Assembly (NCBI GenBank): GCA_027078545.1
Contig: JALWXN010000004.1
Coordinates: forward strand, 128,001-192,000
Direction: 5' to 3'
Source of the DNA: Nitrososphaeria archaeon
GTDB taxonomy: Archaea > Thermoproteota > Nitrososphaeria > Geothermarchaeales > JDFR-13
DNA: 64,000 bases
Position 1 is the first letter of the stretch, and every line of letters begins with the position of its first letter. The notes under the pieces are model-generated. The model did no database searches, was not told the origin of the DNA, and saw only the letters and a program-made list of their open reading frames with translations. Below are positions 20,552-59,086 of this stretch, piece after piece. The translations under genes and the position numbers were made by a program.

Positions 20552-20670
20552 GCCGGGATGCCCGAGTGGCCCAAGGGGTCGCCGCAGCGGCCTAGGCCTC
20601 GAGATCCCCCTGCTCGGGCTAGCCGATGGGGCTCCGCCCCGCGTGGGTTCAAATCCCACTCCCGGCGCCA
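20552..20670 (+). tRNA. tRNA-Ser(CGA) with two introns: 29/30 (20582-20595) and 37/38 (20604-20620)
   Basis: Acceptor GCCGGGA/TCCCGGC, G73, long variable arm; BHB helices GGGT/GCCT and CTCG/CGGG restore anticodon stem TCGGC/GCCGA. Confidence 0.92.
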
Positions 20671-20697
20671 ACATACTTGATCCAGGTGCACCTAAAG

Positions 20698-22146
20698 GTG
20701 AGGATTGAGGAGGTAGTACGATACATCAACAGCCAGGGATACATAGTACCTACAACCGTCATAAAGAGGTTTGAAGGTGTAGAGATAGATCTTGACGAAG
20801 ACAGGATAACCCAGTTCCTCCTCGAACAGGGAAGCATCATAATTGACGAGGAGAGTATAACGTCCTTCCTAGAAAGATACGTAACCAAGACGGGAGAAAC
20901 CGAGGAGGAACTAGAGATCGATATACTCTTGGAACATGATAACACGAGGATAAATGATCCAGCGGTTTTCCAGGAACTCCTCAGGAGCAGATATGAGGAC
21001 CTGAGAAAAAGGGTCGTCAGATCCATCGGGACATCCCAGATCTATACTGCGTCATCCCTCTTCACCGACATAGCCCTAAAGAAAGATATTAAAACGGTCT
21101 ACGTAGCCGGCCTGATATACTCGAAGAGAGTCATGGAGGACAGAGTAACAATAGAGCTGGAAGATCTATCAGGCATGATAACCGCAACAGTGTACAAGAA
21201 TACAAGGCCACAGGTATACAATACGGTGGTTAGACTCCCCCTAGACAGTTTAGTTGGACTCAAACTCAGAGTTGGTAATGAGGGCCGGTTAGCAATAGAG
21301 GACGTATATTTACCCAAGACCAAGAGCCTAGGCCAGACGAGGAATGTCGATGCATACATAGCCCTTATATCTGATATTCACGTTGGAAGTAAGAAGTTCA
21401 ACGAGGAGCTCTTCCTAGAATTCATAGACATACTGAGGGGGGAGACCGACAACACAGTACTCAGGGAGATCGTGAGGAAGACCGAGGCCCTCCTAATAGC
21501 TGGAGACCTTGTCGACGGTGTAGGAGTATACCCAAACCAAGAGAAGGAGTTGGATATAGATGATCTATGGCAACAATATGAGTATGCATATAGCCTGATA
21601 TCTAAGATTCCCCGCCGGATCAGGGTCATAATCATACCAGGTAACCACGACGCAAGCAGAAACGCCCTGCCACAGCCACCAATCTTCAAAAAATTTGCTG
21701 GAAAACTCTATGAAGACACACGTGTTTACATGCTCCCAAACCCTGTAAACATAGGTTTGCAGGGTGTAAACACGTACATCTACCACGGAGACTATATCCA
21801 AGACCTATTAACATCAACGCCTACCGTGGATCTAGACGACGTGGCCTCAGCCACAAAGATAATGATCAACACAGGCCACGTAGCCACCAACCTATCGCTA
21901 AACACCAAGGTGTTCCCCACACCAAACGACACCCTAGTACTACCTCCCAATATCGACCTGCTACACTTCGGCCATACGCATAAATTCAGGATCATGAAGA
22001 TCAACGGCGTACTAGCCATAAACAGTGGGACATTCCAGGAACAGACAACGTTCCAGAAGATGATGAAGATAGAGCCCGATGTAGGGAAAGTGGCGTTCAT
22101 ACATCTAGACGGCCTGAAACCCTTGACTCTAGACCTAACCGCCTAG
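20698..22146 (+). CDS. polB: DNA polymerase D small (exonuclease) subunit DP1
   Basis: OB fold plus phosphoesterase motifs SDIHVG, AGDLVDG, PGNHD, YHGD, GHTH; start reassigned to GTG 20698 (AGGTG SD upstream) because the ORF-track start lies inside tRNA-Ser. Confidence 0.9.
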   Translation: MRIEEVVRYINSQGYIVPTTVIKRFEGVEIDLDEDRITQFLLEQGSIIIDEESITSFLERYVTKTGETEEELEIDILLEHDNTRINDPAVFQELLRSRYEDLRKRVVRSIGTSQIYTASSLFTDIALKKDIKTVYVAGLIYSKRVMEDRVTIELEDLSGMITATVYKNTRPQVYNTVVRLPLDSLVGLKLRVGNEGRLAIEDVYLPKTKSLGQTRNVDAYIALISDIHVGSKKFNEELFLEFIDILRGETDNTVLREIVRKTEALLIAGDLVDGVGVYPNQEKELDIDDLWQQYEYAYSLISKIPRRIRVIIIPGNHDASRNALPQPPIFKKFAGKLYEDTRVYMLPNPVNIGLQGVNTYIYHGDYIQDLLTSTPTVDLDDVASATKIMINTGHVATNLSLNTKVFPTPNDTLVLPPNIDLLHFGHTHKFRIMKINGVLAINSGTFQEQTTFQKMMKIEPDVGKVAFIHLDGLKPLTLDLTA

Positions 22147-22149
22147 ACG

Positions 22150-23355
22150 TTAGAGAATATCCTCGATCAATGGATCTTCGGACAACGACTTCAACAATTC
22201 CTCCCTATCAACAAGAAGCCTGACAGTGCTAACCCTCCCACCTCTACGGCCATAGTTGTAGATCCTCCTACTTACAAGACCCATAACAGCCAACTCGGAG
22301 ACGAGGCTATAGAACCTCCTATAGGAGAGTGGATCCTCCCCCACCAGTTTACACAACCCGGTATATATGCTGTATAGCTTGGAAGACTGGATATTAGTTG
22401 ATCCAGCCTTGACTAGAGACACTAGGATGATCTTGCTGTGGAAGGGAAGCGTCTTGATCACCTCGGCGGTCCTCTCCACATCAATCCTCTCATAAGCCTC
22501 CCTAACATGCTCCTCAACAACTCTATGATCACCCCGTTCCTCAGCGATCTCACCAGCAACCCTGATGATGTCGAGGGCCTTCCTAGCATCCCCATGCTCG
22601 GATGCTGAGAGGGCTGCGGCCAGCTTGATACTACCGTCCTCAACAACGTTCGGCTTGAAGGCAAGCTTAACCCTCTCCCTGATAATCACCTCAAGCTCAG
22701 AAGCGGTATAGGGTTTAAACACGATCTCCTCCTCACTAAGACTGGAGAGTACCCTAGGATCCATAAGATCCTTAAACCTAAGGTCGTTGGATATCCCGAT
22801 GATCATGTAGGGAATATCGGCACCCTCATATCCAGCCCTTGTGAAGGAGTATAGAAGCTGATCACCATACCTAGTAACCAACACGTCTATCTCATCCAGC
22901 ACTATGACTATCGGAATCCTATCCTCCCTCAGCCTCAGAAGAACCCTAGAAATACCCTCCTCAACCGATAGGCCGGTGAAGGGTAGATCAACCCCAATAT
23001 CCGAAGCGATGCTAGCGACGACCCTATACTCGGTTCCGGCCATCCTACAGTTGACATATGAGATGTAGGCCGGGATACTATTCCTCTCGAGAAAGTCTCT
23101 CAGCCGGCCCAGTACATACTTAGTAACCGCGGTCTTACCCGTACCTGGCTTACCATAGATAAAGACGTTAGAGCTCTTCTCACCACGTATTATAGGGGAG
23201 ATCAGCCTACCAAGCCTAGCAATCTCCTCATCCCTAAACGGTAGGCTACTCGGAATATAGTCGTGGAACAGGACCTTCTTGTCACGGAATATCGGGCTCT
23301 CAGACACCGCCCGCTCAAAGATCTTGTCAAGAAAATCATCCGACACACCTCCCAC
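22150..23355 (-). CDS. cdc6: Orc1/Cdc6 replication initiator
   Basis: GKPGTGKT, YVNC, LDEID, RVLSSL, FKPY, HGDARKA, C-terminal wHTH. Confidence 0.95.
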   Translation of the reverse strand: MGGVSDDFLDKIFERAVSESPIFRDKKVLFHDYIPSSLPFRDEEIARLGRLISPIIRGEKSSNVFIYGKPGTGKTAVTKYVLGRLRDFLERNSIPAYISYVNCRMAGTEYRVVASIASDIGVDLPFTGLSVEEGISRVLLRLREDRIPIVIVLDEIDVLVTRYGDQLLYSFTRAGYEGADIPYMIIGISNDLRFKDLMDPRVLSSLSEEEIVFKPYTASELEVIIRERVKLAFKPNVVEDGSIKLAAALSASEHGDARKALDIIRVAGEIAEERGDHRVVEEHVREAYERIDVERTAEVIKTLPFHSKIILVSLVKAGSTNIQSSKLYSIYTGLCKLVGEDPLSYRRFYSLVSELAVMGLVSRRIYNYGRRGGRVSTVRLLVDREELLKSLSEDPLIEDIL

Positions 23356-23359
23356 CTAG

Positions 23360-23675
23360 TCAATTCAAGTGTTTCAAATGTTCTTTACTCTTCTGTGACT
23401 AGTGAGCACATAGGGTTAGATACATACTATGAACATCACTCTAGAACTTCATCCGCTTTTCCTACGTTCAGTATATGAAATATCATACTGAAACAGATGA
23501 AACCAAGGGGTGGGGAGTTTCACATGTTTCGCAGCTTTTCACAGGAAAGGCCTAAACCCCTCTGTTTCAAGTGAAACCTGTGAATAGCTATCAAGATTCC
23601 TCCAGGAATGTAACCCTTTAGGAGGCTTGCCTAACACAAGCTTTATCACTTCACAGATCTACACTATATACAGTC
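23360..23675. other. Putative replication origin (oriC) with inverted ORB elements
   Basis: Non-coding gap upstream of cdc6; ORB on minus strand GTTTCACTTGAAACAGAGGGG (23557-23577), ORB-like AACAGATGAAACCAAGGGG (23492-23510), mini-ORB TTTTCACAGGAAA near 23536-23548. Confidence 0.78.
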
Positions 23676-24083
23676 ATGAAGCGAAAAGTGAAGATCGAGG
23701 TCGAGGCCGACGATGGTACGAAGATCAGGATAGAGGTTCCCAACAATGATCCTGAGAAGATATACATGTATCTCAAGGCCCTCAACATGATAACCGGTGG
23801 TAAGGATCTCCAAGAGGCCGGATCTGAAAAGGCCGGATCCAGGGAAGCCACCCTCATTGTAGACAGGGTACGCGAGATAATCCTATCTGAATTCGGTATG
23901 AGCACCTTCACCTTACATGATCTCTACAAGATTTACGAGATGAAGTATGGTGAGTCTATCCCGAAGTCGACACTATCGACATATCTATCGCGCTTTGTAG
24001 ATGATGGGTTGATAGAGAGGATCGGTAGAAGAGGGAGCTACAGGTATAGGGTAGCATCACCCGCTTTGTTCCATACCCAATAA
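23676..24083 (+). CDS. Winged-helix DNA-binding protein adjacent to oriC
   Basis: FTLHDLYKIYEMKYGESIPKSTLSTYLSRFVDDGLIERIGRRGSYRY. Confidence 0.8.
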   Translation: MKRKVKIEVEADDGTKIRIEVPNNDPEKIYMYLKALNMITGGKDLQEAGSEKAGSREATLIVDRVREIILSEFGMSTFTLHDLYKIYEMKYGESIPKSTLSTYLSRFVDDGLIERIGRRGSYRYRVASPALFHTQ

Positions 24084-24656
24084 CTCTCTTATCTCGTCAA
24101 TCCTGTCAGGGTTGACACGATATCTATAGGGCTTGGATGTCTCAATCCTAACAACGTATCCCTTACTATACAGCATCTTGAGGACACGGGAAATATGCTC
24201 CCTAGACTTTCCTAGACTTGAACTCAGCTCCGATGATGTAGCCTCACCCCTATCCATTAGGAGTGATAAGACCTCTACCTCTGCCCTGGATAGTGCTGCC
24301 GATCTCCTAGGCCTCCTCTCCATAGCCTCAGTAGGTCGCATACTACTGGGAACTGGTACTGGTTCAGGTGTAGCCTCACGAGCAGTAGATACTATGGATT
24401 CCTTGCCTTCTGATCCTACTCTCCTCTCGTTGGAAAGTTTGGCCTCTAGTAGTGAGACTCTACTCTTAACAGTCTTCAGATCCTCCCTGAGTCTGGATAT
24501 GCTTTGTTGGAGAGAATAGATCTCGGAGTAGCTAAGGCCTTCGATATGCTTCCTTGTATCTGATATTATCCTCATCATCATGATGATGACTAGTGACGTA
24601 GAGATGACAAACACTGTAAGCGCTATATCCATGAGTGATATCATGACAATATACAT
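24057..24656 (-). CDS. Membrane-anchored coiled-coil / winged-helix (MarR/TrmB-like) protein
   Basis: N-terminal TM helix, short coiled coil, low-complexity linker, LSRAEVEVL...SREHISRVLKMLYSKGYVVR...KPYRY. Confidence 0.8.
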   Translation of the reverse strand: MYIVMISLMDIALTVFVISTSLVIIMMMRIISDTRKHIEGLSYSEIYSLQQSISRLREDLKTVKSRVSLLEAKLSNERRVGSEGKESIVSTAREATPEPVPVPSSMRPTEAMERRPRRSAALSRAEVEVLSLLMDRGEATSSELSSSLGKSREHISRVLKMLYSKGYVVRIETSKPYRYRVNPDRIDEIRELLGMEQSG

Positions 24657-24938
24657 TTTGTGACGTCATCATTATAAACAGTGATGCGGCTCCTCAATAC
24701 GGAAATAATAAGATGTGGACCTGGATCACTAGACCAGCAAAAAGATCCGCATGTCTATATTCTCTCGCGACTATTCAAAGCTCTTCCTGAGATGCTCTCT
24801 GATGATCCTAAATAGGTGCTCAGGATCGATATCCTCATCTAAGAGTGATGTGATGCGTTGTATGATCGCTATGATGTCATCAAGTGATATCACATCACAT
24901 GCCACGAGTAGGGATAGTGTCATCATGGATTTCGTCAC
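24574..24938. repeat. Cluster of RTGAY/RTCAY half-sites and RTGAYRTCAY palindromes
   Basis: 27 half-sites counted by hand in 365 bp; palindromes at 24635, 24660, 24871, 24884. Confidence 0.8.
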
Positions 24939-25115
24939 ATTGTCGATTCCCTGATTCCTAACCCTATGGAACGTCCCTCGCTTCACCTTTTTACCGAGGA
25001 TTTGATAGGTCTTGCTTTGTCTCTGCACCGTTAGTGTGTAGAGTTGTCTCGATGTTATGCTGCTTATCCTGTCTATTTTTTTACCTAGTCGTGTAAATTT
25101 GCAGGCCTCCGACAT
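24771..25115 (-). CDS. Small HTH-like (Tfx/sigma-r4-like) protein
   Basis: ITSRQLYTL and VKRGTFHRVRNQGIDNV pattern; G-rich SD upstream of ATG 25115. Confidence 0.55.
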   Translation of the reverse strand: MSEACKFTRLGKKIDRISSITSRQLYTLTVQRQSKTYQILGKKVKRGTFHRVRNQGIDNVTKSMMTLSLLVACDVISLDDIIAIIQRITSLLDEDIDPEHLFRIIREHLRKSFE

Positions 25116-25206
25116 ATGCTTTAGCCCCCCTTCTATTGTAATACAGAATTGTCTACGGGGGAAGATTATATACATTGAGTATGGAATAATTGATTAGGTG
25201 TAGTTG

Positions 25207-25458
25207 ATGGGTCGTAGAAGGAGGAAGAAGGTTGTTAAGATCTACAAACCTAAGATCCCTAAAATATTCACATGCCCAATATGCGGAGCTACCGCTCTGA
25301 ATATAACAATAGATAAGAAAAGTAGGAAAGCAGTAGCCAAATGTGCCGAGTGCGGTCTTCTATGGGAGACAGAAGTAAAGGAGTATGAGGAGAAGATAGA
25401 CATTTATCACAGGCTCTTCGACGAATACATTGATGCCGGGGGAGCTGAGGAGACGTGA
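25207..25458 (+). CDS. elf1: Transcription elongation factor Elf1
   Basis: MGRRRRKK, FTCPIC...CAEC, IDIYHRLFD. Confidence 0.88.
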   Translation: MGRRRRKKVVKIYKPKIPKIFTCPICGATALNITIDKKSRKAVAKCAECGLLWETEVKEYEEKIDIYHRLFDEYIDAGGAEET

Positions 25459-26246
25459 AGATTGGGCCTACTGAAAAGTATCTATGGAGTGAGATCGAGT
25501 CTAAAGGATCGATACATCTGAGCCTTCTCGACCCTGAGGAGTTTCAGGATCGTGAAAAGCTTATTGAAACGGTCTCTATAGCCGAAGAAGCAGGTACCTC
25601 TGGCTTCATGATAGGAGGCTCTACAGTCTTCGATCAGAGCCTCGTTGATCGTGTTGTCATGATGATAAAGGAGGTGACGTCACTACCCGTCATATTGTTT
25701 CCAAATGACATCACAGGATTGTCACGTCATGCAGATGCCTTGTGGTTCATGTCGTTGCTAAACAGCATCAATCCCTACTTCATAACAGGGGTTCAGATGA
25801 GGGCCGCCTTCCTTGTGAAGGCTATGGGTCTAGAGGCCATCCCAATGGCATACCTGATTGTGGGTGAGGGCAAGACGGCGGGATACATGGGATATGCCCA
25901 TAACATACCCTTAGATGAGCCTAAGATCGCGGCTGCCTATGCATTGGCCGCCAGATACATGGGGTTTAGATTCGTCTATCTCGAGGCCGGCTCGGGAGCG
26001 GGGAACAGAGTAGACACTAGGGTTATTAGGATAATCAAGAAGGCCGTCGACGAAATCGGACTCGTAGTAGGGGGAGGCATAAAAACCTATGAGGATGCCT
26101 TCGACGTAGCTAGTTCCGGTGCAGATATCGTTGTTACGGGGAATATCCTGGAGGTGGATCCCAAGAGGATCTTCGACATCGTTAGAGGGGTAAGAGAGGG
26201 TGGAAAAGAGAAGCTTAGAACCCTTCATCGAAAAGCTCAGGACTAA
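25455..26246 (+). CDS. Geranylgeranylglyceryl phosphate synthase
   Basis: LLDPE, IGGS, PVILFP, SLLNS, YLEAGSGA, VGGGIK. Confidence 0.93.
   Translation: MKIGPTEKYLWSEIESKGSIHLSLLDPEEFQDREKLIETVSIAEEAGTSGFMIGGSTVFDQSLVDRVVMMIKEVTSLPVILFPNDITGLSRHADALWFMSLLNSINPYFITGVQMRAAFLVKAMGLEAIPMAYLIVGEGKTAGYMGYAHNIPLDEPKIAAAYALAARYMGFRFVYLEAGSGAGNRVDTRVIRIIKKAVDEIGLVVGGGIKTYEDAFDVASSGADIVVTGNILEVDPKRIFDIVRGVREGGKEKLRTLHRKAQD
25656..25730. repeat. Second RTGAY cluster inside the GGGPS coding sequence
   Basis: 10 half-sites in 75 bp, including GTGACGTCAC (25674-25683) and ATGACATCAC (25705-25714). Confidence 0.7.
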
Positions 26247-29200
26247 GGATCTGGATCCAACACTTCAGAGCTATTTCCAATCCATTATAAATGAGGTTCT
26301 TAGACAATACGATCTCGCTAATAAGCTGCGATCACAGGGTTCTGACCACGTACCTCATGTGGAGACTGAGCTTATCTGGGATATGGCTGAACGTGTTGAG
26401 AAGCTTATAGGCATAGATGGGATAGCCGAGTTTATCAGGTCCAATAAGGACTTATCAAGGGAGAGACTGGCGATTAAGGCCATAGACAAGCTTATAGACG
26501 GTGAGTTCGGAGATTACGAGCTAGGTAGACTCGTGGATCTAGGTGTTAGACTTCCCCTAGCCATCCTAACCGAGGGTATGACTGTAGCCCCTCTAGACGG
26601 GATAAAGAAGGTGGTGATTAAGAGGGGGCCTTTCGGAAACTATCTCTCCATATATTACGCAGGCCCGATAAGATCAGCCGGTGGTACTGAGACCGGTCTA
26701 TCAATAGTTTTGGCGGACTATCTTAGGAGGAGGCTGGGCCTAGAGAAATATTATCCAACAAAGATGGAGATCCATCGTTTCATCGAGGAGCTAAGGCTAT
26801 ATGAGAGGAATGTAGCTAGGTTCCAGTACCACCTGACGGATGAGATGCTGTTCTACATCCTTAGCAATCTACCTGTAGAGGTTACGGGCGTACCTACTGA
26901 TAACATCGAGGTGCTTGTGTATAGGGACATCCCCTCGATAGAGACTAATAGGGTTCGTGGGGGAGCGCTCAGGGTAGTTAATGATGGGATCGGGGGTAAG
27001 GCTAAGAAGCTTCTAAAGATCATCGATGAACTGGGTCTTGAGGGCTGGGAGTGGCTGGAGGAGGTTGCTAAGGGTGTGGCTGGCCAGGGTAAGGGTGACG
27101 AGGAGGAGGACAAGGTGCTTAATGATCTCGTCATAGGTAGGCCGGTCATCTCCCTCAAGTCTAGCACACACGGCCTACGTCTAAGGCTGGGGAGACTGCC
27201 CAATACAGGGATCTCAGCCGTAGCTGTCCATCCGGCCGTCTTCTCCGTATTAAGATACTTTATAGTCCCAGGGTCTCAGCTTAAACTGAACATCCCTGGT
27301 AAGGGAGGAATAGTAGTCCCGTCAAGAATAGCAATGCCACCAATAGTTGAGCTAGATAACGGTGATGTAGTCGAGGTAGAGACGGAGGAGATTGGTGAGG
27401 AGCTCTCCCAGAGGATAAAGAGGATCCTTTTCCTAGGAGACATAATCGTCTCCTATGGAGATTTCCTGGAGAACAACCAGCCGATACCTCCGCTACACTA
27501 TACCCCTGAGTGGTGGATAGGCGAGCTGGAGGAGGCCACGGGGAGGAGATATGACACGCAACTCCCTTATCAATTATCATATGGAGAGAGTTTTGAACTC
27601 TCCGAGAGGTATGGGATTCCCCTCAACCCCTACTATGTACCCTCCTTTGAATACCTAAATGTGGATGAAACTGAGAGTCTCGTCTCCCAATTGAGCGATG
27701 GATATGTTAAGCATGGAGAGGGCGAGCTAATAGTCAGTGGCTCTAGGGAGCTATCCCACCTACTTAAAAAGGCTAGGATCCCCTTCCGACGGAAGGGTGA
27801 GCTTATCGAGATCCGGCATAGATACTCCTACATCCTACATGACTTGATAAGGGGCTATAGGAGCCAGAGGTTGTATAAGCCTAGATTCACCAATTCCTCC
27901 GACGTAGTCTCATTCTACCTAGGCGTTAGGGTTAGGTGCCTAAGAGGGACCTATGTATCGGCTAGGCTAGGTAGGCCGGAGAAAGCTAAGATGCGGAAGA
28001 TGAACCCACCGGTACACGCCCTCTTCCCCATAGGAAGCTATGGGGGTGACCAGAGGAACATCGTCAAGGCATACAAGCAGAACGAAATAGTTGTAGTCCA
28101 GCTATCCATCCTCTACTGTGAGACCTGTGGGAAGTACACATATAGGAACAGGTGTGAGACATGTGGATCCAGGACTGTCCAGGCCTACTACTGCTACAAC
28201 TGTAAAGTAGACACCCGATCCGAGAGTTGTCCCAAATGTGGGAGAGAGACGAGGCCATACAAGAACTGGTCCATCAACCTTAGAGATCTTGTCAGGGAGA
28301 TTAGGGAGAGACATGGCCTAAGGATCCCATCCAAAGTAAAGGGTGTAAAATCACTCCTAAGCGGATATCGGAGATATGAGGAGCTATCCAAGGGAGTACT
28401 GAGGGCTAAACATGGCTTATCAGTATTTAAGGACGGTACATGTAGAATAGATATCACTAACGCTCCTCTCACAAGTGTCTCTCTCAGGGACATAGGGATA
28501 GATGTGGATAAGGCAAGAGAATTGGGATACCAGGTCGACAGTATAGACGATGTTATAGACTTGATGCCTATGGACATACTGATCCCCGAGTCGATAGTCC
28601 CAGACCTCATCAACATGTGCAGTTTTATAGACGAGGAGATAGTGAAGCTGTATGGCGGTGAGCCTATCTACCGGGTGAGGGATAAGACAGACCTCATCGG
28701 CAAGTTGGTCGTCGGCCTCTCCCCACATACCTCCTCAGGAGTTATAGGCAGGATAATCGGCTTCACCAAGGCCAACGTCCTATATGCCCATCCACTCTGG
28801 CACGCTGCTAAGCGGCGTGACTGCGATGGGGATCAAGACGCAATTATGCTGCTTATGGACGTCCTACTAAACTTTAGTAGAGAGTACCTACCCTCCTCAT
28901 CTGGAGGCCGGATGGATGCCCCCCTCTTCGTCTCCGTAGTTGTACATCCGGAGGAAGTTGATACACAGGTCCATAACCTAGACGTCGTTGATAGATACCC
29001 ATTGGTCCTATACGAGAAGTCATTGGAGAACGTGTCGCCTAAGTTGCTTAGAGAATATATCGCTGTGGTTGAGGACTTCCTTGGAGAATCGAAGGCCTAT
29101 TATGGCTATGGAGCCCTGGATAGGGCGCCTATCCTATCTACAATAAAGAATGTCAACATGTATTCCAAGCTCAAGAGCATAGAGGCTAAGCTGGATAACC

Positions 29201-29610
29201 AGCTTAAAATAATGGAGAGGATCTTTGAGGGCGACGACAAGGCCCTCATCGTTGAAAACCTGCTTAAGAACCACGTGCTGAGGGATATAATGGGTAACCT
29301 GAGGAGCTTCTACCACCAGAGCTTTAAATGCTCCTCCTGCGGAGCCACATACCGTAGAACCCTGCTCAAGGGGACATGCATAAAGTGTGGCGGAAACCTT
29401 AGGCCGACAGTCCACACTAAAAGCGTGGTTAAATATCTGCCCCTCGCCAAGAAGCTGTCTAGCTATGTGAGGAGCCGCTACATCTTGTCCTATATCTCCC
29501 TTATTGACTCTATACTGGCTTCAACGTTTGAGCTGGATACACCGCTTGGTACCAGTATTTTCGACTATGTTGAGAGGGACGCTACTCAACAAGATAGAAC
29601 TGATCAGTGA
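26200..29610 (+). CDS. polC: DNA polymerase D large subunit DP2
   Basis: LAILTEG, YAGPIRSAGGT, RVRGG, RLGRPEK, Zn fingers, FKDGT, HAAKRRDCDGD, GGRMDAP; no intein seen. Confidence 0.95.
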   Translation: MEKRSLEPFIEKLRTKDLDPTLQSYFQSIINEVLRQYDLANKLRSQGSDHVPHVETELIWDMAERVEKLIGIDGIAEFIRSNKDLSRERLAIKAIDKLIDGEFGDYELGRLVDLGVRLPLAILTEGMTVAPLDGIKKVVIKRGPFGNYLSIYYAGPIRSAGGTETGLSIVLADYLRRRLGLEKYYPTKMEIHRFIEELRLYERNVARFQYHLTDEMLFYILSNLPVEVTGVPTDNIEVLVYRDIPSIETNRVRGGALRVVNDGIGGKAKKLLKIIDELGLEGWEWLEEVAKGVAGQGKGDEEEDKVLNDLVIGRPVISLKSSTHGLRLRLGRLPNTGISAVAVHPAVFSVLRYFIVPGSQLKLNIPGKGGIVVPSRIAMPPIVELDNGDVVEVETEEIGEELSQRIKRILFLGDIIVSYGDFLENNQPIPPLHYTPEWWIGELEEATGRRYDTQLPYQLSYGESFELSERYGIPLNPYYVPSFEYLNVDETESLVSQLSDGYVKHGEGELIVSGSRELSHLLKKARIPFRRKGELIEIRHRYSYILHDLIRGYRSQRLYKPRFTNSSDVVSFYLGVRVRCLRGTYVSARLGRPEKAKMRKMNPPVHALFPIGSYGGDQRNIVKAYKQNEIVVVQLSILYCETCGKYTYRNRCETCGSRTVQAYYCYNCKVDTRSESCPKCGRETRPYKNWSINLRDLVREIRERHGLRIPSKVKGVKSLLSGYRRYEELSKGVLRAKHGLSVFKDGTCRIDITNAPLTSVSLRDIGIDVDKARELGYQVDSIDDVIDLMPMDILIPESIVPDLINMCSFIDEEIVKLYGGEPIYRVRDKTDLIGKLVVGLSPHTSSGVIGRIIGFTKANVLYAHPLWHAAKRRDCDGDQDAIMLLMDVLLNFSREYLPSSSGGRMDAPLFVSVVVHPEEVDTQVHNLDVVDRYPLVLYEKSLENVSPKLLREYIAVVEDFLGESKAYYGYGALDRAPILSTIKNVNMYSKLKSIEAKLDNQLKIMERIFEGDDKALIVENLLKNHVLRDIMGNLRSFYHQSFKCSSCGATYRRTLLKGTCIKCGGNLRPTVHTKSVVKYLPLAKKLSSYVRSRYILSYISLIDSILASTFELDTPLGTSIFDYVERDATQQDRTDQ

Positions 29611-51890: not shown

Positions 51891-52090
51891 ATTAATTCCT
51901 TTTTGGTCGCGCTCCTTTTCTTCCCATTCCTTCCCGAGAAGTTAATCAATATTCGGAAAAATGTAAAGAAAAAGAGGACGTGATGGGTTACAAGTATTGC
52001 ATAAGTCATGCCTCCCGGGGGGCGCTGAGTTAAGTAAAAATAGACTGCAATCAGTTTATAACGATTGTGACTTAACTTACATTTTTAAGC

Positions 52091-52684
52091 TTGAAAGGGA
52101 GAATGAGATTTGTAAGTGAAATGAGTCTCGGAAGAGAGACGCAACTTATGACCTATAAAGATAAGGGTAAAACCATTAGGCCTATAAGCGTAACAATGAT
52201 TAATGACAGTTTTATAGTTGCAGTCTATAAGGGTAAGAAAAGCGCAGCAGATATAGTAGTAAGATATAGACAAAGATTAAAAAACGGTGGTTGGTCTAGG
52301 ATTCGAACTCCAAAACATATACACTGGACTGTGGACATTTTATTGAAGATGCTAAAATGTGACAAACTTACTAAAAAATTTCTAGACGAGCTAATAAAAA
52401 TCTGGGAGAAAGATGTTCATCCACTATCAGAAGAAGATGTAAAGAAATTAGACCTTAATCAATTGGTAATCAGTAAGAAAGATATATTGGAAAGGTTTAA
52501 AGAACTAAATAGATATGGAGAATATAGTGTTGATTTCCTCTTATTAATAGCAGAACTTCTCATGTTACAAGAAAAAACAAACTATCCAAGTGGAAAACTA
52601 TTCCTCATATTGCTAAAAAAACTAAAGGAAGGTGAAGATCTGTTCAGTATTGTTCAAACAGCTTCACTTCGAAGACTTCAGTGA
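52091..52684 (+). CDS. Hypothetical protein in defence region
   Basis: AT-rich ORF with motif-like RIRTPKHIHWTVDIL and LMLQEKTNY; start uncertain. Confidence 0.7.
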   Translation: MKGRMRFVSEMSLGRETQLMTYKDKGKTIRPISVTMINDSFIVAVYKGKKSAADIVVRYRQRLKNGGWSRIRTPKHIHWTVDILLKMLKCDKLTKKFLDELIKIWEKDVHPLSEEDVKKLDLNQLVISKKDILERFKELNRYGEYSVDFLLLIAELLMLQEKTNYPSGKLFLILLKKLKEGEDLFSIVQTASLRRLQ

Positions 52685-52834
52685 GGATAATTGTTGCTTC
52701 CTCTACTAGTTAAAAAGGCCAAGCCTGAATAGTTATGTTAAAGGCCCTCGTTACAAAAACTGAGTTTATGGTTTCGACTACATTTACTTAGTCTATGAAT
52801 GGCTCGATAAGGCAGCCTAGTTGTCTATGTTTAA

Positions 52835-54520
52835 TTATTTAATTATATTTGCTAGTATGCCCGCTAACAGACTCGTTCTTTTCTCTATTTCTTCTCCGCT
52901 CCATTTCTTATATTTATCAACTAAGTATTTGGTGTTTAATGCTAAACCCGATTTTTTATAAGTCTCTTCCTTTTCATTATAGTTTTTAGAACCTAACTTG
53001 ATGTTTTCATCCTCCTCTAAGAGAGTTAAATTTCCTATTTTATAAACTAATTCAGGATTATCTAGTTTATCACGACGACTAATTGGATAAATATGCTCTA
53101 GTGTCAGGTCTTTTGAGGGGCGTTTCGTGTTCTCAGAGCTCTCAATTTCAAACAGCAAAGCTTTAGCTAATCTTTCATGTTTTCTTTCCTTAAATAAGAA
53201 TTTAAGTAAACTTTGCTTAAACTCGTTATCCTCTGGAAATAGGTTACGCAGTTCTTGGTAATATTTTTCAGTGTTATTATTCTCAATAAGCTCTATCAAT
53301 CGTCGTATTTTCTTTTCAAATTCACTTGGTGATTTAGAACATATTGTTCGTCTTATAAGTGTATAATATAAAGGTTTTAGTTTCTTCTCTATCTCTTTGT
53401 CGTTTATATTTCCTTTAGGATCTGCATATTTTTCAAGAAGAGCAAACATAATGGGAATGTGTTGTCTTATACCGATGGAGAAAAGAGTAGTTAAATAATC
53501 CACTATTGTCTCTTTCTTCCAATATATTTTCGATGGTGCTGAGATGTTCCTGTAATATATATTAAGAAATCGTTCTAGTTCGTCGAAAAATTGTCTGACA
53601 TCATCAAGATTATTAATCCTCTTTTTTATTTCTTTAAAAATATCCTTTTCTCTTACAAAGTCATATTTGTATATAAGATAATATCTTATAACATATTTCA
53701 GTTCTCTACTTTCATATTCTGAGAGGAAGCTATTCCACTTTTCATCAAAACGTATAACCTGTGTTTGATCCTCAGAATTACTTAGAATACCTAGAAGATA
53801 GTTTTTTATAAGGTCTAGTGGAGCTAAGGTAAGCCCTCTAGCGTTTAAAGTTTCGAAAATTAGAAAAGCGTTATGTTCAGAGTCCACTTCTACTACTACA
53901 GTAATTATATTCTCTTTTATCCCGATGTCAACAATCTTACTTAACCATTCTTCAATTTTCTGATTATTTTTCTTTATTTCTCTATCTATAATTTTATAGG
54001 ACTCTACATAAGTTGTTAACATATTATTCCATGATGTATATTTTTTATCGTTTAGAAGTTTTCGCAGTTCCCTTTCCTTTTTCTGTAAAGAACCTTCTTT
54101 GATTGTTATAATTTTTTCGTAGAATTGTCTATCAATCTTATTAGGAATGACACTTAGTTTCTCATTGCCTACAACATCATGATGACGCATAAGAAACAGT
54201 GAATGGATCCTATTGCTAAATTTTGTATAATTCATATTAATAAGGTAGTCTCTTAGAGCAGCCAAGAAGAGACAGGTAGTTATTAGTCGTTGTTGACCAT
54301 CGATTACAACATATTTATTCCTACCCTTTGATGTTAGAACCATCGGACCAATAAAATATTCCTCTCTAGACCCTTGCTCTATGATATCTAAAATAAATTC
54401 CTTTGCTTCCTCTTTCCAAGAATAGCTTCTCTGATTAATAGGAACTTCAAAATCTCTTGTCTGCAACAACTGTCCTAATGTTTCACTCCTAACATCTGTT
54501 ACAACTTTTTTGTTACTCAT
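52835..54520 (-). CDS. GmrSD-like (DUF262 + DUF1524 HNH) modification-dependent restriction protein
   Basis: VPINQRSYSW, IDGQQRL, FETLNARG, LEHIYP, IGNLTLL...N. Confidence 0.9.
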   Translation of the reverse strand: MSNKKVVTDVRSETLGQLLQTRDFEVPINQRSYSWKEEAKEFILDIIEQGSREEYFIGPMVLTSKGRNKYVVIDGQQRLITTCLFLAALRDYLINMNYTKFSNRIHSLFLMRHHDVVGNEKLSVIPNKIDRQFYEKIITIKEGSLQKKERELRKLLNDKKYTSWNNMLTTYVESYKIIDREIKKNNQKIEEWLSKIVDIGIKENIITVVVEVDSEHNAFLIFETLNARGLTLAPLDLIKNYLLGILSNSEDQTQVIRFDEKWNSFLSEYESRELKYVIRYYLIYKYDFVREKDIFKEIKKRINNLDDVRQFFDELERFLNIYYRNISAPSKIYWKKETIVDYLTTLFSIGIRQHIPIMFALLEKYADPKGNINDKEIEKKLKPLYYTLIRRTICSKSPSEFEKKIRRLIELIENNNTEKYYQELRNLFPEDNEFKQSLLKFLFKERKHERLAKALLFEIESSENTKRPSKDLTLEHIYPISRRDKLDNPELVYKIGNLTLLEEDENIKLGSKNYNEKEETYKKSGLALNTKYLVDKYKKWSGEEIEKRTSLLAGILANIIK

Positions 54521-54991
54521 TAGAATAACCTCCTAACGACTCTGAATATGTTACCTACTAGCTTGTAATATCTGTTAAATATTTGCTTCAATTACATATA
54601 TAAGTCGATTCCTTACACAAACACTGGGAAGAAAGTTCAAAGACTATATTAATTCCTTTATGTAAATAATTATTTCGAACAAGTTCCTCATTTAAGAACA
54701 TGGGTGGGAAACCTATTATAAACCTGAGTTTGCAACACTTTGTCTTATAGGTGTTCAGCTACGAGAAATATAGTATATTATATGCATATGAACATCTCCA
54801 TTGACAATAGTGATAATAATGATGTAAAAGTTTGAATGAATCTTCAAGAACATCCAGGACTTTCAGATAAATTGTGAAGGGGGAAAGGGTAGTCTGATAT
54901 ATATTCTACTTTCAATTAGATACTTCCAACCAAGACTTATCTATAACAAGTTAAAAAAATCAATGAAGAGGCCATAGAAAACCGGACAAAC

Positions 54992-54999
54992 TTTATAAA
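54992..54999 (+). promoter_or_regulatory. TATA box for tRNA-Asp
   Basis: TTTATAAA preceded by A-rich BRE-like sequence, about 29 bp before the tRNA. Confidence 0.6.
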
Positions 55000-55027
55000 A
55001 CCGGAGTCTGAAAATATAGAGTTGACT

Positions 55028-56596: not shown

Positions 56597-58581
56597 CAGC
56601 CCTCCTCTTCTTTTCTGGCCTGTGACGAGCCGCTACCCTTCAACCTCTCCCGGAATTTTTCAAGACCTTCTATATTGTTGAGCTCTTCCATCCACTCTCT
56701 TGGATCCTTCAGATGGTACTTACCACCCCTTTCACTGAGGAAAACACTTGATAGGCCTCCCAATACAACGGCGAGGTCATCCCACCTATTATAGAAATAC
56801 TCCTGTAAAAGAGGCATTATCCTATACACCCATACCTCTTTAAACGTCTCAAATGCATCATTTTCGTTTTTGGATCCAGCTAAGACCTCGAGGAAATAGC
56901 TATGCCCAATCCTATGATCCCTATCCAAGTAACTCTCAATTCTCTCGTTCAAAACCTCCAGGATCTCCTTCAGATGCTTTGCCAGCTCCTCCTTCTCCTC
57001 GCCAATCTTTCTAGCCACTTCTACCAGGGTATCGGGATCGGGGGGTATCTCGAGGAATGCAAACCGTCTCCTCAATGCATAGTCGACAAGGGCGATACTC
57101 TTATCCGCAGTATTCATGGTACCGATAATATAGAGGTTTGGAGGAACCGCGAATAGCTCCTTTGAATAGGGCAGGGTTACCAACACGTAATTCTCTCCAA
57201 ACAGCCTCTTATCCATCTCCAGGCAAGTAATCAACTCACCAAGTATCCTAGCCAAGTCACCCCTGTTTATCTCATCAATAACCAGATAGAACTTGCGAAC
57301 AGACTCACCTGATTCGTCATATTTTTTCTTATACTCATTAAGATCATCTGGGTTTTTAAGAATCTCACTAACGCCTTTCTTATAGCCTAGATCTTCAAGT
57401 AGGGCTTCTAAGGCCCTACGAGCCAGATCCTTAAACACACCATCCTCAACCTTATACATTATTCTACCCTTTTCATCGGTCACGGCTCTATAGCCCTCAA
57501 CAAACTCCTCATAACTATATGATGGATGGAAAGTGACAACCTCATAGAGATCTTTATTGCCACAAGTCACCCCATCCACGTATTTCAGAGCAAGAAAAGT
57601 CTTACCCGTACCAGGAGGACCATACAAAACAACCTGTCCATACATCTTTAGAAGATTATCAATATCTGAATATCTTTCCTCCTCTCTTAAGTTATCCTTC
57701 TCTTGATCATTATGGTTGCCATTGTGGTTACCCTCTTCCTTCGAGTGTTGGCCATTATTGTGTGTATAGAGATATATGAAACCAGAAAACCAAACAGTTT
57801 TGTATTTCACCCTACAAATCATATTTTTATTCAGTATTTCGTTGAAATTCAAATAATGAATTTCCATAAGATATTTTCTCACATAAATTTCGGGTTCATT
57901 TTCAATTTCTTTCACCTTTGGAAGATGGTTACATGTTTTTGAAAAGGCTATGGCATTACTATCATATGGACAAAATATCTTCGGATTAATCAAAAATAAT
58001 CCTTGAGTTAATTTTGGTACTCTTATCCCAGGTTCTGATCGTATTTCCTTAAATCTTTTAGAAAAGTAGCTTATGTCATTAACAAGATCCTCTATGGTAT
58101 CATAATTACTTATTCTTTCCCCAAATTCCCATAACTTGGGGACGATGTCCTCGATGTTATTGCTATCGGGATCAAAGAAGAATCTTCGCTTTGGGGAGGG
58201 TTGTAATGGCTGCCCGGTTCCAACTGGTAAATCATATTTTTTGCTAGTTCTTTTAATGCGTATCTCTTCTGGACGGATAGGTTTTTTACTTCTTCCTGCA
58301 GTATGGATAGAATAAATTATCGTAAATGGATCAATTAAATATTTTCCTTCTTTACTCTTAAACTTCTCCTTTTCCATTTTAATGCTTACTATTGATGTTA
58401 GTTCATCCACTAGTTCTTCATAAAACAATGCTTCTTCCTCGGGATCGGTCTTGACCTTCCTCCATTCGTCGAACAAATCTTTCCAGAACTCTAAGTATTT
58501 CTCGACCCAGTTATCATTATAACCTTTCATTAATGCCCTAATTTTTTGGTCGTGTTTCTTAATGCATTCCTCTAATGGCAT
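56596..58581 (-). CDS. mcrB: McrB-family AAA+ GTPase
   Basis: GPPGTGKT, FHPSYSYEEFVEG, IDEINRG, MNTADKS, ALRRRF, IGHSYF; TGATG coupling to mcrC. Confidence 0.93.
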   Translation of the reverse strand: MPLEECIKKHDQKIRALMKGYNDNWVEKYLEFWKDLFDEWRKVKTDPEEEALFYEELVDELTSIVSIKMEKEKFKSKEGKYLIDPFTIIYSIHTAGRSKKPIRPEEIRIKRTSKKYDLPVGTGQPLQPSPKRRFFFDPDSNNIEDIVPKLWEFGERISNYDTIEDLVNDISYFSKRFKEIRSEPGIRVPKLTQGLFLINPKIFCPYDSNAIAFSKTCNHLPKVKEIENEPEIYVRKYLMEIHYLNFNEILNKNMICRVKYKTVWFSGFIYLYTHNNGQHSKEEGNHNGNHNDQEKDNLREEERYSDIDNLLKMYGQVVLYGPPGTGKTFLALKYVDGVTCGNKDLYEVVTFHPSYSYEEFVEGYRAVTDEKGRIMYKVEDGVFKDLARRALEALLEDLGYKKGVSEILKNPDDLNEYKKKYDESGESVRKFYLVIDEINRGDLARILGELITCLEMDKRLFGENYVLVTLPYSKELFAVPPNLYIIGTMNTADKSIALVDYALRRRFAFLEIPPDPDTLVEVARKIGEEKEELAKHLKEILEVLNERIESYLDRDHRIGHSYFLEVLAGSKNENDAFETFKEVWVYRIMPLLQEYFYNRWDDLAVVLGGLSSVFLSERGGKYHLKDPREWMEELNNIEGLEKFRERLKGSGSSQARKEEEG

Positions 58582-59086
58582 CTTAAAATAAATTATAACA
58601 CCCTATTTCCTTAAATAGATGTTTTAGGGTCTCTAACAACTAGCTGATTATACAATAGTTTTCAGTTTTCACCGCTATTCTTAAGAAATGTTGCATGGGA
58701 GAAAAAATTCGCTATTAGTTCTTATGTTGAGTTGTTTAGTTGCTTTCTATAGACAGGATGTGGTTCAAGTGAGTATATGAGATCATCTTAATTTATATTT
58801 TATTGAATTAGTATGTTTAACTGATAACATTATATGTTTCATTTACTCAAATAGTTCTCGGAAGCTATTCATGGAGAATATCCATTATATCATCGTTTCT
58901 GTCATATATAGTCACTCGTTATATAGCGTGAGGTTGTCTTTATAACAACAGGTTAGAGATAACGGTCCTCCTGTTTTTGAATGTCTAGGAACTAGCTCTC
59001 AGCTTTGTAACACGTGTACCATACACAGATCTGGAGGGTGCATAGCATTAAGCAATGCATGTGGAGATTTCTAAGTCCGATGTAAG

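Follow-up and report, generated by a model that had tools for sequence, protein, structure and literature searches.

A selected array of short palindromic sites beside a probable replication origin in a Nitrososphaeria archaeon, and its candidate membrane-anchored winged-helix reader

What does a dense array of short, partly palindromic DNA words do beside a probable origin of replication (oriC), and which protein reads it? The question is raised by a 64,000-nucleotide stretch of a Nitrososphaeria archaeon (assembly GCA_027078545.1, contig JALWXN010000004.1, positions 128,001–192,000; hereafter the window), in which RTGAY/RTCAY half-sites, some of them joined into RTGAYRTCAY decamers, crowd around a gene for a protein with a transmembrane (TM) helix, a coiled coil and a winged helix-turn-helix (wHTH) domain. 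This array is under selection at the DNA level, as is seen from its intergenic sites, from synonymous-codon resampling and from its conservation across genomes of 30–62% GC. The reading put forward here, which is given a probability of a little under one half (about 0.45), is that the array serves as a dedicated multi-site docking locus of the TM-wHTH protein (below, the membrane protein), which would repress its own gene there and hold origin-proximal DNA at the membrane.

The array stands alone in its genome. Between 24574 and 24938 (365 bp) there are 27 half-sites, exactly the number counted by hand in an earlier reading of the letters alone (the sequence-only reading); the genome mean is 2.57 per 365 bp (standard deviation 1.76), and the next-best windows hold 12, one of them being the cluster in the gene for GGGP synthase (GGGPS). 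The six decamers and the 18-nt perfect palindrome listed in that reading were all found in place (Table 1), the decamers being the only ones in the window, where dinucleotide shuffling predicts 1.05 per 64 kb, six being reached in 0 of 100 shuffles. The whole 1.24-Mb assembly holds 16 decamers, so that six fall within 1.1 kb (24635–25714; Poisson P = 1.1e-14 for six or more in 1.1 kb). Because the other ten are isolated, with eight of the nine on the main contig inside open reading frames (ORFs) as chance predicts, there is no sign of a regulon. No second array was found among the genome-wide half-site windows; the motif had been feared to be equally frequent elsewhere, which is ruled out by a genome-wide density that shows one dense cluster only. 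When ATGAY words alone are counted, the array has 16 and the next-best window 11.

Three clusters, spanning about 1.2 kb, make up the array. In cluster B one decamer (24660–24669) lies between a TTTATAA box, whose promoter role is suggested by archaeal TATA-to-start spacing, and the predicted transcription start, and another covers the start codon of the membrane-protein gene. The start-codon decamer is kept in the relatives G002, G001 and G004, as is, at the equivalent place, a decamer of cluster C. Spacings between half-sites of the same orientation, collected over loci that are related to one another, peak at 9–13 bp, with weaker bumps near 21, 30 and 42. A generic repeat finder returned nothing beyond the half-sites, and a scan for sigma-70 promoters and terminators was uninformative, the host being an archaeon.

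Selection on DNA had been proposed earlier from intergenic sites and from sites in three reading frames, and both observations hold: seven half-sites are intergenic (one of them outside the clusters), and the coding half-sites occupy all three codon phases, phase 0 being commonest, in both orientations. To these is added an excess over synonymous resampling (5,000 resamplings with the genome's own codon usage). The 3′ part of orf134 within cluster A carries 12 half-sites against 6.0 expected, a number that none of the 5,000 resamplings reached, while the 5′ half of the same gene, taken as a control, carries none against 0.4 expected. In cluster B the first 29 codons of the membrane-protein gene carry nine half-sites against 5.5 (P = 0.006), and in cluster C the GGGPS gene carries ten against 4.65 (0 of 5,000 resamplings reached ten) and two decamers against 0.13 (P = 0.002). 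The remainder of the array-hosting genes is at synonymous expectation. In relatives, the last 57 codons of orf134 gave P ≤0.012 at nine of 14 loci, and the first half of the gene at none. An explanation by Met, Ile and Asp codon content, named beforehand as a way in which the proposal might fail, is largely refuted by counts about twice the synonymous expectation with controls at expectation.

The array is also kept across lineages. Its gene order (PolD-small, Cdc6, a spacer with boxes like the archaeal origin recognition box [ORB], wHTH135, TM-wHTH, orf134, Elf1, GGGPS, PolD-large) recurs in 19 loci of the class and in other classes of the phylum; lineages with the gene block include a Geothermarchaeota nearest relative, Nitrosocaldus, Nitrososphaerales, Nitrosopumilales, Hecatellales and, most prominently, Bathyarchaeia. 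Of 151 genomes sampled from the phylum, 89 yielded a member of the membrane-protein family, with several families lacking a match (for example f18, 0 of 13), and a search with an alignment of the wHTH alone gave its recognition-helix pattern in 584 confirmed stretches. From −400 to +100 of the TM-wHTH start, DNA is richer in half-sites than its flanks in all of 28 related loci (30–62% GC), and more than twofold richer in 25 of them. For the densest 500-bp window of each of 80 further loci, the median count is 16 half-sites (background 4.65), and in 55 of the 80 this window starts 100–1300 bp upstream of the gene match. Absence of the array beside orthologous cassettes, another outcome that would have told against the proposal, is therefore ruled out by this excess across two archaeal classes. 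A search of the 151 genomes for the composite motif RTGAYRTCAYNNRTCAY placed it beside the TM-wHTH gene in at least 14 genomes, often in two or three copies, and gave no match in the searched families that lack this gene, such as f18 (0/13), f11, f16 and f20. In one relative (G030) a distance of 4.5 kb separates cdc6 and wHTH135 from the TM gene, orf134 and GGGPS, and it is beside these last three that the half-site cluster is found; the array travels with the TM-wHTH gene.

The grammar of the array differs among lineages. The array of this genome is built from decamer palindromes and overlapping triplet steps; that of Nitrosopumilaceae is made of GTGAT words, some direct and some inverted. 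The position before GTGA is enriched in T in both Nitrosopumilaceae and Bathyarchaeia. In Bathyarchaeia the sites fall into three stereotyped groups: GTGAYRTCAC-NN-RTCAC at the end of the orf134-like gene; the same arrangement mirrored, immediately upstream of a cTTAAAt box; and, between this box and the start codon, GTGAT-NN-GTGAT, a 12–20-bp gap and ATCAC repeats 10–11 bp apart. A third cluster lies 0.9–1.1 kb away in non-coding DNA upstream of the orf134-like gene, and distal clusters are kept at 0.8–1.1 kb, in non-coding DNA in Bathyarchaeia and in GGGPS coding sequence in the present genus. In a further subgroup of Bathyarchaeia (about 20 of the 80 further loci; L083:600–1061), the array is inside the coding sequence of hypF, about 1.5–2 kb from the membrane-protein gene: synonymous resampling predicts 9.3 half-sites and 0.25 decamers for the segment, which has 21 (a count not reached in 5,000 resamplings) and three, respectively; elsewhere hypF does not depart from synonymous expectation, and the promoter of the TM-wHTH gene itself is almost bare. 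PolD-small lies downstream in this subgroup, with no cdc6, wHTH135 or orf134 within 3 kb. The HHHAH motif accounts for part of the hypF signal, and not for all of it, as is shown by the three decamers and by the codon test.

Some local features accompany the array in particular lineages. In seven Nitrosopumilaceae loci (L018, L020, L022–L025 and L028) there is a smaller second peak of 6–7 half-sites per 100 bp in the wHTH-coding part of the membrane-protein gene, and the gene-body half-sites of these loci are about twice the synonymous expectation (P ≤0.012). In the Bathyarchaeia genome G108 (L069:5044–5562) a 520-bp non-coding stretch upstream of the orf134-like gene has the third cluster at one end and an AT-rich tract in its middle. 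A 22-bp site, GTGATATCAC-TA-GTGATATCAC, is conserved in three Nitrosopumilaceae genomes (L032:2590–2615 in Nitrosopumilus sp. K4; G022; G025) at the start of a PadR-like regulator gene that is divergent from succinate dehydrogenase; the PadR-like protein may regulate its own gene through this site, or the GTGAY reader may have a second target there.

Table 1. Coordinates of genes and sequence features around the half-site array (positions within the window).
Feature	Position	Strand	Remarks
PolD small subunit gene	20626–22146	+	Replication gene island
Orc1/Cdc6 initiator gene	22150–23355	−	Pfam Cdc6_lid 2.6e-23, Cdc6_C 4.4e-20, AAA domains
Probable oriC spacer, 320 bp	23356–23675		ORB-like boxes: CCCC/GGGG string and GTTTC-N4-GAAAC dyads
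wHTH135 gene, 135 amino acids	23676–24083	+	Winged helix
TM-coiled-coil-wHTH gene	24057–24656 (ORF list); 24057–24644 (revised)	−
Cluster B	24574–24685		Promoter and first codons of TM-wHTH gene; decamers at 24635 (start codon) and 24660; palindrome 24572–24589
TATA-like TTTATAA	24672–24678	−	About 31 bp upstream of ATG 24644; conserved in G002
orf134 gene	24771–25175 (ORF list); 24771–25115 (likely start)	−
Cluster A	24845–24938		3′ coding part of orf134; decamers at 24871 and 24884
Elf1 gene	25204–25458	+
GGGPS gene	25455–26246	+	Pfam PcrB 2.4e-56; host of cluster C
Cluster C	25656–25730		Inside GGGPS coding sequence; ten half-sites; decamers at 25674 and 25705
PolD large subunit gene	26200–29610	+	Matches PolD-large in relatives

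The membrane protein is the best candidate reader of the array, as far as its sequence indicates, and a plausible membrane-anchored one. Homologues place its start, which is probably too far upstream in the ORF list, at an ATG at 24644, inside a decamer, which gives 195 residues (195–199 across the two starts). The AlphaFold2 model has a helix at 4–79, disorder at 80–119 and a wHTH at 120–189; the domain passes the Pfam threshold for TrmB (8.3e-11; 42 bits against a cut-off of 25.6; residues 122–181) and also matches MarR, and the protein ends about ten residues after it, without a sensor domain. All 19 of 19 homologues have a 19-residue window of hydropathy 2.2–3.2, and because 0–1 basic residues (K/R) precede it and 2–4 follow, the 3–24 N-terminal residues are predicted to lie outside the cell. 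In Nitrosopumilus sp. K4 the proteins are publicly annotated as “winged helix DNA-binding protein” and “hypothetical protein.” A Foldseek search with the wHTH domain gave generic wHTH neighbours; AspA of pNOB8 led these narrowly (E 7e-5, TM-score 0.62 on target), and since this match is no better than those to MarR/ArsR proteins (2e-4), it shows a generic wHTH only.

The membrane protein is named as candidate mainly because its recognition helix matches the GTGA(Y) core of the array. R148, E149, H150, R153 and K156 of this helix are invariant in the family alignment, and its S-R-E-H-x-x-R-x-L-K pattern aligns to “SREMVGRVLK” of Vfr. In CRP–DNA structures, R180, E181 and R185 of CRP read G-T-G-A of TGTGA; the membrane protein likewise pairs an R-E-x-x-x-R helix start with a GTGA-containing half-site, a CRP-like reading pattern in which the base contacts are extrapolated from the CRP structures. 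The likeness to CRP and Vfr thus extends to the S-R-E-H-x-x-R-V-L-K helix and to the half-site core, GTGA(Y), often preceded by T, and it stops there: unlike CRP/FNR proteins, the membrane protein lacks a cyclic-nucleotide domain (its score of 20.4 bits for Pfam HTH_Crp_2 is below the cut-off of 27), and site steps of 5, 7 and 10–11 bp replace the 6-bp-spaced inverted repeat of CRP. A second comparison is with the TrmB family (PF01978), whose TGM motif, TATCAC-N5-GTGATA for TrmB/TrmBL1, contains a half-site, GTGATA, that resembles the array word; unlike TrmB/TrmBL1, the membrane protein has no C-terminal sugar-binding domain, has an added N-terminal TM helix and coiled coil, and is paired with a single-locus array rather than a metabolic regulon.

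The genes that accompany the membrane protein had been described as a three-HTH cassette, a description that stands for the winged helices of wHTH135 and the membrane protein and is weaker for orf134. wHTH135 begins with a beta-rich part and ends in a winged helix, with weak Pfam wHTH matches only; its family, aligned over 20 loci, has an invariant T-Y-L-x-R, and its atlas neighbours are Bathyarchaeota hypothetical proteins, some with Penicillinase_R. Its gene converges on that of the membrane protein with 3′ ends overlapping by 27 bp (24057–24083), a similarly tight convergence being seen in relatives. A word-indexed search with orf134 found three close relatives only; the families were therefore built from syntenic loci. 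By its homologues orf134 probably encodes 114 residues (134 in the ORF list) and belongs to a helical family conserved over 19 aligned loci, just upstream of the TM-wHTH gene throughout. Its profile had no significant sequence match in Pfam or the PDB, and its AlphaFold2 model (pLDDT 83) returned nothing with E below 7 from Foldseek against the PDB; residues 17–75 are weakly like sigma-70 region 4 or a LuxR-type HTH (VIA-align Z 4–5.3, with many sigma region-4 rows). When the cytoplasmic part of the membrane protein was co-folded with orf134, no support for a complex emerged, a result that is not evidence either way.

The location beside oriC, claimed from the outset, is reasonable, not proven: the ORB-like boxes of the spacer are kept at the equivalent place in the relatives G002, G004, G008 and G009, cdc6 is adjacent in nearly all related loci, and the 1.14-Mb contig shows a turn of its cumulative GC, AT and keto skews at 160–212 kb (cdc6 lies at 151 kb), with the opposite extreme at 745–830 kb. 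The oriC spacer (23332–23651) and the array (24632–24951) are the joint top 320-bp windows of the genome for TGTGA, with five copies each and four in the next, a weak signal that the reader of the array might also touch oriC. GTGAA is likewise densest in the oriC spacer. The statement that the cassette lacks a ParA/SegA ATPase was borne out by a Pfam scan of 20.6–26.2 kb, which found none among its genes, and the ORF that continues to 29.6 kb is the PolD-large match; no gene for a ParA-type, ParM or TubZ NTPase was found in 20.6–29.6 kb or in the syntenic blocks of relatives. Elsewhere in the window, low-GC islands (0.30–0.39 against about 0.50) at 52001–55000 and 57001–59000 may represent insertions or mobile DNA.

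Taken as a docking locus, the array would work as follows. The membrane protein would have a short N-terminus outside the cell, one TM helix, a cytoplasmic stalk of roughly 55 residues, a flexible linker and a winged helix, the recognition helix of which (R148-E149-x-x-x-R153, then V-L-K) would read (T)GTGA in the base-contacting pattern of CRP and Vfr. Several copies would occupy the three site clusters over about 1.2 kb. The complex should repress the protein's own gene because the sites adjoin the TATA box and cover the gene start, and it would hold origin-proximal DNA at the membrane, as a centromere-like anchor without a motor ATPase of its own, because the protein is predicted to be membrane-fixed and the array is unique in the genome and about 1 kb from the Cdc6/ORB origin. 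The single array and its distal clusters would fit a structural role of this kind, whether centromere-like or as a membrane tether, as would the number of half-sites, 12–27 over the three clusters, and the missing sensor domain.

Bacterial origin–membrane anchors, namely RicO together with RocS of Streptococcus pneumoniae and RacA of Bacillus subtilis, would be the nearest working analogues. As in these, a wHTH of sequence-specific type and, in 19/19 homologues, a predicted TM helix are joined in one protein, and the candidate sites, which this protein would bind, are origin-proximal, about 1–2 kb from the ORB-like spacer. RicO of Staphylococcus aureus, with its origin-near motif ricS, is reported to combine a DNA-binding domain and a membrane-targeting element in one protein and to have no dedicated motor encoded with it (bioRxiv 10.64898/2026.03.06.710092). 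The present system differs in having an N-terminal TM helix and coiled-coil stalk in place of a C-terminal amphipathic helix or a DivIVA partner, one tight array around its own gene in place of sites scattered over the origin region, and an archaeal host, with no sequence relationship found or expected. A second parallel is offered by plasmid centromeres of the parC/ParR type, in which arrays of repeats or palindromes overlap the promoter of the binder's gene, so that the centromere is also the operator. The present array, like those of parC/ParR and of AspA on the Sulfolobus plasmid pNOB8, lies over the promoter of the gene of its binder (here a candidate) as short repeats; unlike them it is chromosomal, its cassette contains no ParA, ParM or ParB genes (HTH_ParB reached 16.6 bits against a cut-off of 22.6, and Pfam found no ParB N-terminal domain in the cassette genes), and a membrane anchor takes the place of a motor.

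Several points weigh against the docking reading. Amino acids alone predict 4.6–6 half-sites per coding segment in this genus, and when GTGAY words alone are counted the array is less extreme, ranking first with 11 against a next-best 9. The 5-bp spacing of the half-sites in the decamers is incompatible with reading by a CRP-like dimer of usual geometry, and orf134 and wHTH135 also carry conserved, putatively DNA-reading parts. The cassette is without a motor or adaptor gene, and adjacency to the origin could merely reflect a stable replication gene island. Lastly, the sites that bracket the TATA box and transcription start in most lineages are explained by plain autoregulation.

Autoregulation of the TM-wHTH gene is likely, because of this bracketing, and an autoregulatory operator, which the sequence-only reading had kept as its alternative, has no less support where the core sites are concerned, with decamers by the TTTATAA box and on the start codon. 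That the array is a local operator complex only, however, in which a cassette protein controls transcription of orf134 and the TM-wHTH gene, perhaps also of neighbours, with the distal clusters looping in and the anchor modulating regulator activity, is considered rather unlikely. Such a complex is suggested by the one decamer between promoter box and start codon and the other over the start codon, by the Bathyarchaeia site groups that flank the cTTAAAt box and fill the leader, with a further cluster upstream of the orf134-like gene, and by the fact that wHTH proteins of MarR/ArsR/TrmB type are usually autoregulators. It would nevertheless be a regulator without a sensor domain and with its own locus as sole target, and thus with no evident output, and it accounts poorly for clusters 0.8–2 kb off that are maintained through codon choice in GGGPS and hypF, for a promoter that is almost site-free in the hypF subgroup, and for a linkage to cdc6 and ORB kept over two classes. 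Operator and structural readings are not exclusive, and both may hold, since plasmid centromeres such as parC overlap the promoter of their binder and the two functions need not be alternatives.

The array may instead be read by orf134 or wHTH135, with the membrane protein as a partner or unrelated, which appears improbable. Each of the two families is kept along with the cassette and includes conserved helical or wHTH parts, and orf134 in particular always adjoins the array, has sites in its 3′ end and bears the weak likeness to sigma-70 region 4; yet wHTH135 remains with cdc6 where the array moves away (G030), neither gene is found within 3 kb of the membrane-protein gene and array in the hypF subgroup, and the CRP-like helix that matches the GTGA core is found only in the membrane protein. 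Quite improbable, too, is a role of array and reader as an accessory origin element that controls initiation (by origin sequestering or licensing, or by control of cdc6) rather than chromosome position. The constant place about 1 kb from the ORB-like boxes, between two PolD genes, and the shared TGTGA maximum would agree with such a role, but the dyad with adjacent G-string that marks archaeal ORB sites occurs in 23356–23675, with neither G-string nor GTTTC dyads within 24560–24940 or 25650–25735, the array is 4.5 kb from cdc6 in G030, and no cdc6 lies within 3 kb in the hypF subgroup. Very improbable, and largely refuted already, is the array as a by-product of Met/Ile/Asp/His/Val codons or as a C/D-box small RNA gene (box C being RUGAUGA) without a role at the DNA level: although the encoded amino acids do supply part of the half-sites and sub-threshold Rfam C/D matches occur at 24894–24969 (23 bits against a threshold of 37; the best, sR33, at 23.2 bits against a gathering score of 37), the box order is wrong, with the box C-like word at the 3′ rather than the 5′ end of the match, seven half-sites are intergenic, coding counts are about twice synonymous expectation with control segments at expectation, the array keeps its position at 30–62% GC despite diverged protein sequences, and its palindromic and composite architecture is a DNA feature.

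The docking reading, in which the membrane protein grips the array at the origin, makes the module a testable candidate link between origin DNA and the cell membrane, and it offers defined handles: a DNA word, a candidate reader with three predicted contact residues and a conserved position at the side of oriC. The literature searches found no description of this archaeal array and membrane-protein system, and no centromere or origin-positioning factor described for Thaumarchaeota or Bathyarchaeota. The module is present in cultivable Nitrosopumilus as well as in uncultured lineages. Sites of protein-binding type kept in GGGPS and hypF by codon choice are a clean case of overlapping codes, and even as an operator only, the system would be an unusual one, with a membrane-anchored regulator whose own locus is its sole target. 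A broader proposal is tentative: that Bathyarchaeia and Nitrososphaeria, ammonia oxidisers included, position or separate their chromosomes by a motor-less device, in which a centromere-like GTGAY array at the side of oriC would be gripped by a TM coiled-coil wHTH protein that fixes origin DNA physically to the membrane and also shuts off its own gene. If this is true, motor-less origin anchoring of this kind would be an archaeal form of the attachment envisaged in the classical replicon model.

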